Shown here: one piece after another, positions 4,783 through 48,336 of the stretch
Layout: every line of letters starts with the position of its first letter
How positions within the stretch are numbered: position 1 is the first letter of the stretch
Assembly (NCBI GenBank): GCA_016187335.1
Contig: JACPJW010000001.1
Coordinates: 128,001-192,000 of the forward strand
Length of the DNA stretch: 64,000 nucleotides
DNA from: Candidatus Aenigmatarchaeota archaeon
Lineage (GTDB): Archaea; Aenigmatarchaeota; Aenigmatarchaeia; GW2011-AR5
Reading direction: 5' to 3'
Position numbers and translations under genes: made by a program
Notes under the pieces: model-generated
Database searches by the model: none
Seen by the model: the letters and a program-made list of their open reading frames with translations, nothing else
Told to the model about the DNA's origin: nothing

Positions 4783-4869
4783 AAATAATATGTTTCTTTG
4801 CTCAGAAAGCGAAAGCTTTCTGGCAACTCAAGAAGCTTACGCTTCTTCGAGTTTTCCCGAGGGTTTTTC
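4783..4869 (+). repeat. 87-bp direct repeat, copy 1 (contains family B double hairpin)
   Basis: Identical by eye to 8797-8883. Confidence 0.9.
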
Positions 4870-8796: not shown

Positions 8797-8883
8797 AAAT
8801 AATATGTTTCTTTGCTCAGAAAGCGAAAGCTTTCTGGCAACTCAAGAAGCTTACGCTTCTTCGAGTTTTCCCGAGGGTTTTTC
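8797..8883 (+). repeat. 87-bp direct repeat, copy 2
   Basis: Identical by eye to 4783-4869; offset 4014 bp. Confidence 0.9.
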
Positions 8884-8940
8884 TTTGCAAAAGAAAAAGG
8901 CTCTTTTATAAACCCTGAACAATAATAATTAGGTTTTGCT

Positions 8941-27825: not shown

Positions 27826-27977
27826 TTGATTAAACTTTCTTTCTAAGAAAGTTTACAAGAACAGGGTTATTATAAGCTAATTCTTTTGGTGCAACTTTTC
27901 CTAAAAGTTGCTTTGATTAAACTTTGGATTTACTGGCCACAAGTCTCTTTTGGTGCAACTTTGGAGAAGCAAATTGC
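27826..27977 (+). repeat. Cluster of four family A mini-hairpin copies
   Basis: TTGAT+taaactttctt/tct/aagaaagttta; TTGGT+gcaactttt/cct/aaaagttgc; one partial and one degenerate copy. Confidence 0.8.
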
Positions 27978-33383: not shown

Positions 33384-33411
33384 TTGATAGAACTTTTTTT
33401 GAAAAAGTTCT
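33384..33411 (+). repeat. Family A mini-hairpin abutting tRNA-Leu G1
   Basis: TTGAT+agaacttttt/ttg/aaaaagttct. Confidence 0.85.
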
Positions 33412-33673
33412 GCGGGGGTTCCCGAGAAGCCCTTTTTAGAAAAAAGCGCTTGCGGAAAAACTAAGGAGGGTTAGGGAATGGCCAAAGGGGCAGGACGGTT
33501 GCCGTGAAAATGGTGCCGGGCTTCACTTAAGGCATGGCTTAAGTTTCGAGCTAAGACAGCTTAGCTATGAAAGAAATCCTGTGGCTTAGTGCCTTCGAGA
33601 GTTCGAATGCGCCCTTTCTTGGAAAGAAAGCGTGCACGGAAAGAAACGGGTGCCGAAAATCTCTTCCCCCGCA
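33412..33673 (+). tRNA. tRNA-Leu(TAA) with four introns (15/16, 30/31, 37/38, 59/60)
   Basis: Exons 33412-33426, 33479-33494, 33525-33531, 33576-33607 and 33660-33673 join into an 84-nt type II cloverleaf; each junction folds as a BHB or BHB-like motif. Confidence 0.9.
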
Positions 33674-33737: not shown

Positions 33738-34637
33738 ATGACTCTAATTTCATTCTTAAGAGCAGGACCTGGAGTTGGTGTGGGACACTCTGATCGCCAG
33801 CTATTGTACACCTCGCGTGCTAGGCCTTCGGAAACTTATCAGGCAAAGGAAAGAAAAGTCATAATGCTAGGCAGTGAGCATTGTGTTGGATACGCAACCG
33901 GAATTGACGTAGGATACGCCCGGAAAATAGTTCATTCGGCAAAACGTGCTGTGGAGTCTCGTTTGCGGGACGGACCTGTCACCTTCAAGGAAGTGCGGGG
34001 TATGGTGACAAAGGCGTATGATGAGGTTCGTTCCGGGAAAGTTCCTAAGAATTTTGATGTGGATCTTATTATTGCAGGTCTTGATGAAGACCCTCCAAAT
34101 TTTGTTACTCATGAAACCAGTTTTATATCTCCCAGACCTCCGCCCAGGGATTTTAGCATAGTAACTTATGACAAAAGCGGAGAGCTAGTTTATCACACGT
34201 ATACAGCTTCAATAGGCTCCGCATCCGACACAGCTGACAGATTTATCAATGAGTTCCTGGAAACCGTGAACCCAAGGCAGCCTTATCTCGGGCTTGTAAG
34301 ATGCGCCCAAGTAGTGATGGAAGCGCACAGAATAGCCGAGAAAAGACATAGGGGAAGCGTAGGAGAAAGAGATCAGTTGGTATGGATAAACGATAATCCA
34401 ACATTTCAAGAAACAAGCGAGAAAGAAACGTCCTTACTCGGTAGCAGCCTGCGCTTGAAGGCACAAGGCCTGCTGACTGGTGAAGTGGTTAATGAGGTCT
34501 TTAAAGTAATTTTGAATCGTGATAATTCCGAAAGGGATGCAGCTACCAGAGTAAGAGATAAGTTAAGAGAAATTCTTTTATCGGATAGTGACGGTGCAAG
34601 ACGTCTCCTCGATTACGTTCTTTTTGGAAGAAATTAA
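33738..34637 (+). CDS. Proteasome beta-like Ntn-hydrolase-fold protein
   Basis: M-T1-LI start, SDRQ, K near position 39, LIIAGLD, SIGSAS, GSVG. Confidence 0.65.
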   Translation: MTLISFLRAGPGVGVGHSDRQLLYTSRARPSETYQAKERKVIMLGSEHCVGYATGIDVGYARKIVHSAKRAVESRLRDGPVTFKEVRGMVTKAYDEVRSGKVPKNFDVDLIIAGLDEDPPNFVTHETSFISPRPPPRDFSIVTYDKSGELVYHTYTASIGSASDTADRFINEFLETVNPRQPYLGLVRCAQVVMEAHRIAEKRHRGSVGERDQLVWINDNPTFQETSEKETSLLGSSLRLKAQGLLTGEVVNEVFKVILNRDNSERDAATRVRDKLREILLSDSDGARRLLDYVLFGRN

Positions 34638-48041: not shown

Positions 48042-48121
48042 GATTTCATTACGACTTCTTCCAAATATAAAATAATTCTTTCTTTCCGCCAGAGCTTTCT
48101 TTTTAAAGAAAGGTCTAAGAG

Positions 48122-48252
48122 CGCCGAGAGGGAGATTTGAACTCCCGCGAGCACGAGGCTCACAAGCTTTCTTACAACCTTCCCTTTTGATGCAACTTTT
48201 GGGAAAAGTTGCTTCCAGGCTTGCGCGTTGGACCAAGCTCCGCCATCTCGGC
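48122..48252 (-). tRNA. tRNA-Ser(GGA) with a 44-nt intron at 37/38
   Basis: Acceptor GCCGAGA/TCTCGGC, G73, CAAGC-CT-GGA-A|intron 48212-48169|A-GCTTG, long variable arm, GGGAG-TTCAAAT-CTCCC. Confidence 0.92.
48187..48212 (+). repeat. Family A mini-hairpin inside the tRNA-Ser intron
   Basis: TTGAT+gcaactttt/ggg/aaaagttgc. Confidence 0.9.
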
Positions 48253-48281: not shown

Positions 48282-48336
48282 TTGCGCAGAAACCAAAGGT
48301 TTCTGGCAATCCCAGAAAGCTCTTGCTTTCTGAGGA
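48282..48336. repeat. Family B double hairpin
   Basis: ttgc-g-cagaaacc/aaa/ggtttctg-gcaa-tcc-cagaaagc/tctt/gctttctg-a-gga. Confidence 0.8.

Follow-up and report, generated by a model that had tools for sequence, protein, structure and literature searches.

The tRNA-Leu(UAA) gene described here gives a concrete, though not the sole, view of the way in which introns enter archaeal tRNA genes. The gene lies in a stretch of 64,000 nt (referred to here as the window) from a genome of a Candidatus Aenigmatarchaeota archaeon and is interrupted by four introns. A first-pass annotation, made from the letters of the window, had proposed that introns 1 and 4 (I1 and I4) are homologous and that one mobile hairpin unit seeds both of them as well as intergenic repeats. 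The locus is informative in three respects: for these two introns it offers filled and empty sites between sister species; unrelated tRNAs elsewhere in the genome contain near-identical candidate donors; and the shared unit (the cassette) also has copies outside introns. The account that we consider probable is that I1 and I4 are BHB introns built on one cassette family and were acquired separately, most likely after the sister species had split.

The gene extends from 33412 to 33673 on the plus strand, as located by a BHB scan and by folding of the spliced product in ARAGORN. Its ends form a 7-bp acceptor stem (33412-33418 paired with 33666-33672), and the BHB scan divides it into five exons of 15, 16, 7, 32, and 14 nt (33412-33426, 33479-33494, 33525-33531, 33576-33607, and 33660-33673), the third of which is a 7-nt micro-exon carrying the anticodon. 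When the four introns are removed in silico, ARAGORN folds the product into an 84-nt tRNA-Leu(taa) with a perfect cloverleaf and a class II variable arm. The introns, all on the plus strand, fall at about positions 15/16, 30/31, 37/38, and 59/60 of the tRNA: I1 in the D-loop (33427-33478, 52 nt), intron 2 at 30/31 (33495-33524, 30 nt), intron 3 at the canonical site 37/38 (33532-33575, 44 nt), and I4 in the T-loop (33608-33659, 52 nt). Introns 2 and 3, delimited by the BHB scan and the spliced fold, are without the cassette. The coordinates and common length that the first-pass annotation gave for I1 and I4 were confirmed, and the motif strings it quoted for them are present in the sequence. 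An open reading frame of 299 aa (33738-34637, plus strand) lies directly 3' of the gene and had no Pfam match at an E value of ≤0.001.

With its four introns, the gene makes clear why standard tools see the window as devoid of tRNAs. Neither ARAGORN nor Rfam matched the unspliced gene on the raw window; no Rfam family reached its gathering score in the window, and around the gene there were chance-level matches only. No second tRNA-Leu(UAA) candidate was found in the assembly, and the gene is the only one of the genome. Across the 1.01-Mb genome, ARAGORN without its intron option reported only four tRNA-like genes, two of which had no clear anticodon, and only 12 Rfam tRNA matches exceeded the cut-off. 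Nearly all tRNA genes of this genome seem to be interrupted, and automated annotation will therefore miss most of its tRNAs.

The identical four-intron sequence was assembled in groundwater metagenomes of two studies and is thus not an assembly artefact. No allele of this organism lacking I1 or I4 was found in the contigs of four groundwater runs, contigs being a form of data from which rare variants drop out. Joints and loose ends seen in these contigs came from the tRNA-Leu genes of other organisms, one of them similar to that of the related genome G015. Contigs with a G015-type tRNA-Leu(UAA) gene, comprising the upstream sequence and its own T-loop intron, occurred alongside this organism in runs X2, X3, X5, and X6, which indicates that carriers of related introns share its habitat.

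In the BHB scan, I1 and I4 were the two best-scoring candidates in the gene region, far above the rest. The motif of I4 is strict (hBHBh'), with four of four pairs in the central helix H, 6 bp in h', and 5 bp in h; that of I1 is relaxed, with three of four pairs plus a G.A in H, 12 bp in h', 4 in h, and only G.U pairs in its outer helix. For both intron contexts, the minimum-free-energy fold is the BHB-competent fold, in which the 5' arm pairs with a distal complement and displays the BHB. The layout of the two introns matches these folds. I1 begins with a cassette copy (33425-33460), followed by the distal complement of the 5' arm (33461-33472), 4 nt that pair with the D-stem exon CCC(G) (33473-33476), and an AA/U bulge. 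In I4, a cassette copy (33607-33646) is followed by the distal closure (33648-33653), by CGAA (33654-33657), which pairs with the T-loop exon UUCG, and again by an AA/U bulge. The distal arm of intron 1 in tRNA-Leu(CAA) repeats the proximal arm exactly over 11 nt, which suggests that duplication of the 3' arm is the way in which a hairpin becomes an intron body. The genome encodes a single EndA (a 202-aa open reading frame in the region of C2:410532-410810; PF01974, 97 bits) and an RtcB ligase (PF01139, 528 bits), and the tRNA-Leu(UAA) introns are predicted to be spliced.

The cassette is about 40 nt long. Its 5' arm consists of three variable bases, CCC, and a U-run (mostly T4-C-T4 or shorter) and leads into a short or variable loop; the proximal 3' arm consists of an A-run, GCG, and the complement of the three variable bases; and the unpaired tail reads GCG-N4-CGGAAA plus an A-run. 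A single C.C mismatch separates the outer stem from the inner stem, and the apex is variable, sometimes containing a complete hairpin of another type (family 2, described below). The tail GCG-N4-CGGAAA is invariant in all 30 aligned cassette copies.

Compared directly, I1 and I4 reach a local alignment score of 27, a value attained by 4/5,000 and 43/5,000 dinucleotide shuffles and by 17/20,000 random genomic 52-mers. The similarity noticed in the first pass thus holds against shuffled controls, being moderately significant: above chance but modest (p of about 0.001 to 0.009). Genome-wide, the tail regular expression AGCG-N4-CGGAAA has 55 copies, compared with 5 to 11 in third-order Markov genomes, and a stem-plus-tail descriptor, which demands the CCC/U-run arm, the tail, and three pairs joining the bases that precede CCC to those that follow GCG, has 39 matches compared with 0 to 1 in Markov-shuffled genomes. 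We also built a covariance model, R1 (44 positions, 13 pairs), from eight equal-length copies elsewhere in the genome, excluding the tRNA-Leu(UAA) gene and its closest relatives; when all 30 copies were aligned with MAFFT, the 5' arm came out misaligned, and only the eight equal-length copies went into the model. Run on both strands of the window with filters off, R1 detected I4 at 43.8 bits (E = 1.7e-9) and I1 at 35.1 bits (E = 3.4e-7). There were four strong matches in all, and the next match scored 17.9 bits, leaving a 14-bit gap. In 36 model-aligned copies, 99.7% of stem cells are paired, a figure for related copies in an alignment fitted to the model, and the three outermost stem pairs carry 21, 19, and 12 double-sided changes, compared with at most 3 in slid controls.

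Membership in one family does not make I1 and I4 close relatives. Over the cassette they are 70% identical, a rank of 24 to 28 of 53, and 23 to 27 other copies are closer to each of them; the proposed homology therefore stands as possession of the same cassette and falls as close kinship. The nearest relatives of I4 are in other tRNA genes (coordinates prefixed C1 or C2 refer to contigs of the genome). Over the cassette span, I4 is 97% identical to the T-loop intron of tRNA-Arg(CCU), a gene with three introns (C2:455398-455661), and 95% identical to the T-loop intron of tRNA-Leu(CAA), which has four introns at the same four positions and whose spliced product is tRNA-Leu(caa) (C2:464461-464732). 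Over the whole intron the values are 94% for tRNA-Arg(CCU), with exons at 56%, and 92% for tRNA-Leu(CAA), with exons at 73%; introns 2 and 3 of the two tRNA-Leu genes are only 46% and 62% identical. The 5' arm of I4 has G where both of these T-loop introns have A, and because the two strands that partner this arm still fit the form with A, I4 looks like a derived copy.

Over the cassette, I1 is 89% identical to the D-loop intron of tRNA-Leu(CAA), 86% identical to a free copy at C2:210425 behind a TAA stop codon, and 81% identical to the D-loop intron of tRNA-Pro. The family as a whole occupies D-loop, anticodon-loop, and T-loop introns, i.e., different nucleotide positions. A D-loop intron at C1:26065-26122 has the cassette followed by at least three tandem 19-nt tail repeats (..ATGCACGGAAAGAAAAAGA..); the cassette tail can thus expand locally.

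With orthologs of the tRNA-Leu(UAA) gene from 12 further genomes, the comparison covered 13 in all. The closest relative, G001, belongs to the same genus (85% ArgRS amino acid identity), and the ArgRS tree places it as the sister with support of 100/100. Its tRNA-Leu(UAA) exons are 100% identical to those studied here and its introns 2 and 3 are present, with the D-loop and T-loop uninterrupted, i.e., with neither I1 nor I4. The next closest genome, G013, had no tRNA-Leu(UAA) exon match. An intron at 37/38 occurs in 13/13 genomes, and the intron at 30/31 is common to this genome (G000), G001, G015, and G019. Introns at 15/16 were found in 4/13 genomes (this genome, G015, G014, and G027), as were introns at 59/60 (this genome, G015, G016, and G027), with lengths and contents that vary: G014 has a family-2 hairpin there, and G016 and G027 have other sequences. 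The four genomes with a 15/16 intron require four changes on the ArgRS tree. Genome G015 belongs to a distant genus (49% ArgRS identity) and groups with G039 and G026, both of which are without introns at the I1 and I4 sites. It has a clearly I1-like intron at the site of I1, alike in the 5' 33 nt and in the 3' end; at the position of I4 it has a T-loop intron of the cassette type that is a different variant.

Set against the empty site of G001, the I1 insertion is defined to the base, and no target duplication is seen there; for I4, a 3-nt AAT repeat is possible, which corresponds to the two bulges. Judged from these comparisons, I1 and I4 were most likely gained in the lineage of this genome after its split from G001. 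We infer this direction by parsimony with one close relative, whose genome is 56% complete. The similar I1 of G015 would either have been gained independently, from a pool that is conserved, or be an old intron that was lost several times.

In the genome, R1 finds 54 distinct cassette copies, about half of which are within tRNA or rRNA introns. At least 24 of the 54 lie within tRNA genes, where they immediately follow exon bases of the D-loop, anticodon loop, or T-loop; intron copies were counted by this sequence context. Automatic BHB removal over 53 candidate regions was too noisy for a full intron catalog and missed tRNA-Leu(UAA). Five copies are in C2:236-243 kb, a region with 16S rRNA sequence. 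A copy at C2:242346-242392 sits between GTTGCCAGCC and GCCGCGGTAATA, inside the universally conserved 515-530 region of 16S rRNA, and its placement suggests an rRNA intron that carries the cassette. The stop codons of open reading frames of at least 150 aa mark the start of nine to ten copies (offset -1 to -3), all of them in sense; no antisense copies were found at these offsets for such frames. Intron copies generally carry a GGG-type distal closure, and the stop-codon copies are without it, running on into an A-run and ATATTA. At E ≤ 1e-4, the cassette occurs in 31/41 genomes of the order, with 0 to 45 copies each and the most in this genome.

Three intergenic hairpins of the window had been cited in the first pass as similar to the introns, and the similarity extends to two of them. 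One is a free cassette copy at 48079-48119 on the minus strand (R1, 37.9 bits); another, at 8866-8905 on the minus strand (32.2 bits), is a variant with CC/CC for CCC/GCG. The third, at 27831-27855 (strand not assigned), scores 11.8 bits (E = 0.5) and belongs to family 2, which has an AACTTT..AAAGTT stem plus an ATCAAA tail and is represented by many hairpins in the window. The copy at 48079-48119 starts 2 nt past the 3' end of tRNA-Ser(GGA) (48121-48252, minus strand, found by ARAGORN with its intron option) and gives way to A/T-rich, TATA-like sequence, beyond which the next gene lies. The variant at 8866-8905 is in a divergent spacer ahead of a minus-strand open reading frame, with two other hairpin repeats after it. 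A family-2 hairpin with a ATCAAAAG tail (48192-48212) lies in the intron of tRNA-Ser(GGA), and with the cassette right after this gene, both families occur in or around one tRNA gene.

Family 2 also reaches the tRNA-Leu(UAA) gene. A hairpin with an ATCAAAA tail, recognized in the sequence and the hairpin list, abuts the 5' end of the gene in antisense (33389-33411, minus strand) and is absent at the same site in G001. The distance from a promoter-like AAAACTTAAAAGCACA, shared with G001, to the tRNA-Leu 5' end is ∼36 nt here, filled by the family-2 hairpin that abuts base 1; the same spacer in G001 (locus L079) measures ∼205 nt and is occupied by a cassette copy along with other hairpins. Hairpin repeats appear to have a hot spot in the tRNA leader. 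Elsewhere in the window, a repeat of at least 50 nt at 4791-4846 and 8805-8860 contains two more hairpins, CAGAAAGC..GCTTTCTG and CTCAAGAAGC.., and related hairpins flank tRNA-Ser (48287-48332). Positions 8 to 171 are packed with five different hairpins, and the genome has several distinct small palindrome families.

No Y1 transposase scored above the cut-off in this genome, which is 90.8% complete (the best match was a 16.7-bit, 45-aa fragment with a stop), and no reverse transcriptase was found in it. The free copies C2:299382 and C2:520261 have counterparts at orthologous stop codons in G001, where coding DNA is ∼70 to 77% identical; one of the two has a compensatory indel in the outer stem, and the other keeps the outer stem and tail with a different apex. 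In the one free copy that aligns far enough downstream, similarity to G001 breaks off shortly past the A-run/ATATTA tail. Also orthologous in G001, with coordinated changes, is the T-loop intron of tRNA-Ser(GCU). Some sites differ between this genome and G001, namely, the tRNA-Leu leader, I1, and I4. Across copies, the outer stem bases of the cassette vary and covary, and its termini are not fixed.

The conserved sense copies fit a selected RNA or DNA structure as well as a selfish element, and the cassette acts partly as a selected structure and partly as a spreading repeat. Of the single mobile hairpin unit proposed by the first-pass annotation, the unit survives, being common to introns and free copies as the descriptor matches and the R1 copies attest. 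Its mobility has only partial support, given the missing Y1 transposase and reverse transcriptase, the I1 site free of target duplication, and the conservation of free copies. As a separate matter, we rejected the cassette as a terminator plus promoter that splits the gene into separately transcribed halves, because within introns the TATA-like part is too near the 3' exon.

The likeness of I1 and I4 might be ascribed to chance or convergence, from U/A runs plus the structural needs of a BHB. Both introns are indeed rich in A/T runs, and their pairwise score is only moderately significant; the invariant unpaired tail, though, is not needed for a BHB, and both the E values of the model trained on other copies (with its 14-bit gap to background) and the excess of descriptor matches over Markov controls make such an origin scarcely credible. 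We regard it as very improbable, too, that one of the two was copied directly from the other within the gene, between D-loop and T-loop. Their equal length and common cassette would suit such copying, and likeness across positions does exist (I4 is 86% identical to the D-loop intron at C1:26122), but many copies are closer to each intron than the two are to one another, and I1 and I4 differ in the variable stem bases, the apical loop, and the 3' part. Because I1 and I4 are each nearest to same-position introns of other tRNAs, transposition between positions inside tRNA-Leu(UAA) is unlikely. An older origin, with both introns in the common ancestor of the family and precise loss in G001 and most other lineages, draws on G015, whose introns at these two positions are a similar I1 and a T-loop intron of the cassette type, and on the 30/31 intron, which is shared among four genomes. 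We consider it improbable, though less so than the preceding two: each carrier of a 15/16 intron has noncarrier neighbors on the ArgRS tree (four changes for four carriers), intron content at both positions differs between carriers, I4 matches introns of unrelated tRNAs of this genome at 92 to 94% identity yet represents a variant other than that of the G015 T-loop intron, and losing an intron precisely is no easier than gaining one where there is no reverse transcriptase.

Another reading concerns the cassette more than the introns and is compatible with separate, recent acquisition of I1 and I4. The cassette could be mainly a selected gene-end structure of RNA or DNA (a 3'-end, terminator-like, or protein-binding hairpin located right behind stop codons and tRNA 3' ends) that is occasionally captured or reused in introns, rather than a selfish mobile unit. 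Sense copies on stop codons, the copy abutting the 3' end of tRNA-Ser, the maintenance of C2:299382 and C2:520261 at orthologous G001 stop codons with compensatory stem changes, the presence of the cassette in most genomes of the order, and the failure to find a transposase or reverse transcriptase are all in keeping with it. In archaeal terminators, runs of T5 or longer are typical; the U-runs of the cassette, mostly T4-C-T4 or shorter, are not of this kind, and terminating U-runs within tRNA genes would be harmful. Copy numbers of 0 to 45 among related genomes and the several sites that differ between this genome and G001 also count against it. On balance, the odds are somewhat against this reading, which nevertheless deserves more weight than the older origin.

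According to the account that we favor, in which I1 and I4 were acquired separately as BHB introns, the 5' arm in the pre-tRNA would pair with the distal rather than the proximal complement and so form helix h' of the BHB, which the single EndA would cut and RtcB would rejoin. The source of I4 would be the pool of near-identical T-loop introns, represented by tRNA-Arg(CCU) and tRNA-Leu(CAA); that of I1 would be the D-loop pool (tRNA-Leu(CAA), tRNA-Pro, and tRNA-His) or a free copy. Any copying mechanism is conjectural. One tentative possibility, which we hold to be doubtful, is that the cassette is a conserved gene-end hairpin, kept on stop codons and at tRNA 3' ends by compensatory evolution and repeatedly copied into the loops of stable RNAs to give new BHB introns. 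The hairpin would be copied into a D-, anticodon-, or T-loop, and a duplicated 3' arm plus 4 nt complementary to the loop would turn it into a BHB intron. If true, this would identify an actual pool of donors and the successive steps by which archaeal tRNA introns arise.

Bacterial REP/REPIN, Correia, and comparable small palindromic repeats are short hairpins present in dozens of copies, with covarying stems and often at gene ends. The cassette resembles them in these features and in that its copy number differs between related genomes and other hairpins nest in its apex. Unlike REP/REPIN elements, it has no cognate Y1 transposase (RAYT/IS200-type, IS200/IS605) above the cut-off and no target duplication at I1; furthermore, its stop-codon copies are strictly in sense, and other copies are inside stable-RNA genes, from which they would be removed as introns. 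We found no description of the cassette or of its stop-codon copies in the literature.

Heavily disrupted tRNA genes are known from DPANN/ARMAN archaea, in which EndA is a broad-specificity enzyme or a loop-bearing alpha-type (PMC3239211, PMC5829648). The present genome is similar in its small size, in having most tRNA genes interrupted, including at noncanonical positions, in its relaxed BHB motifs, in the failure of standard tRNA finders, and in its one short, putatively alpha-type EndA gene. In contrast to the present case, those two studies treat the enzyme and the intron positions, not a shared intron cassette. Asgard archaea gained many tRNA introns independently at BHB-competent sites, including the D-arm, that annotators missed; cross-isotype intron families are almost absent from them (1.5% at 80% identity), and no route of arrival was identified (bioRxiv 10.64898/2026.10.13.758758). 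In this genome, unlike in Asgard archaea, there are cross-isotype copies at 92 to 97% identity plus nonintron copies of the cassette.

The closest parallel is with the Thermoproteales, for whose tRNA genes intron "transposition" was inferred without a mechanism (PMC4090602, summarizing Fujishima 2010; also Sugahara 2008) and whose transposed introns serve as the positive control in the Asgard preprint (bioRxiv 10.64898/2026.10.13.758758). As in the Thermoproteales families described in PMC4090602, near-identical short introns here interrupt tRNA genes with far less similar exons, comparison with relatives indicates late gain, and positions are limited to BHB-competent sites. By measures of the Fujishima type, we find introns more than 70% identical in distinct tRNAs, late gain by parsimony, and members at different positions. 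The present case differs from the Thermoproteales in its setting, a DPANN lineage with an ∼1-Mb genome; in that most members share one cassette with a covarying stem and an invariant tail; and in that the cassette is also found on stop codons, after tRNA 3' ends, and in the rRNA operon region. In the published work on archaeal tRNA introns that we examined, we found no link of intron families to nonintron copies. The cassette-based gain of introns in tRNA-Leu(UAA) looks like the intron transposition of Thermoproteales, here tied to free copies, and the case is an instance of a known phenomenon rather than a new kind of system.
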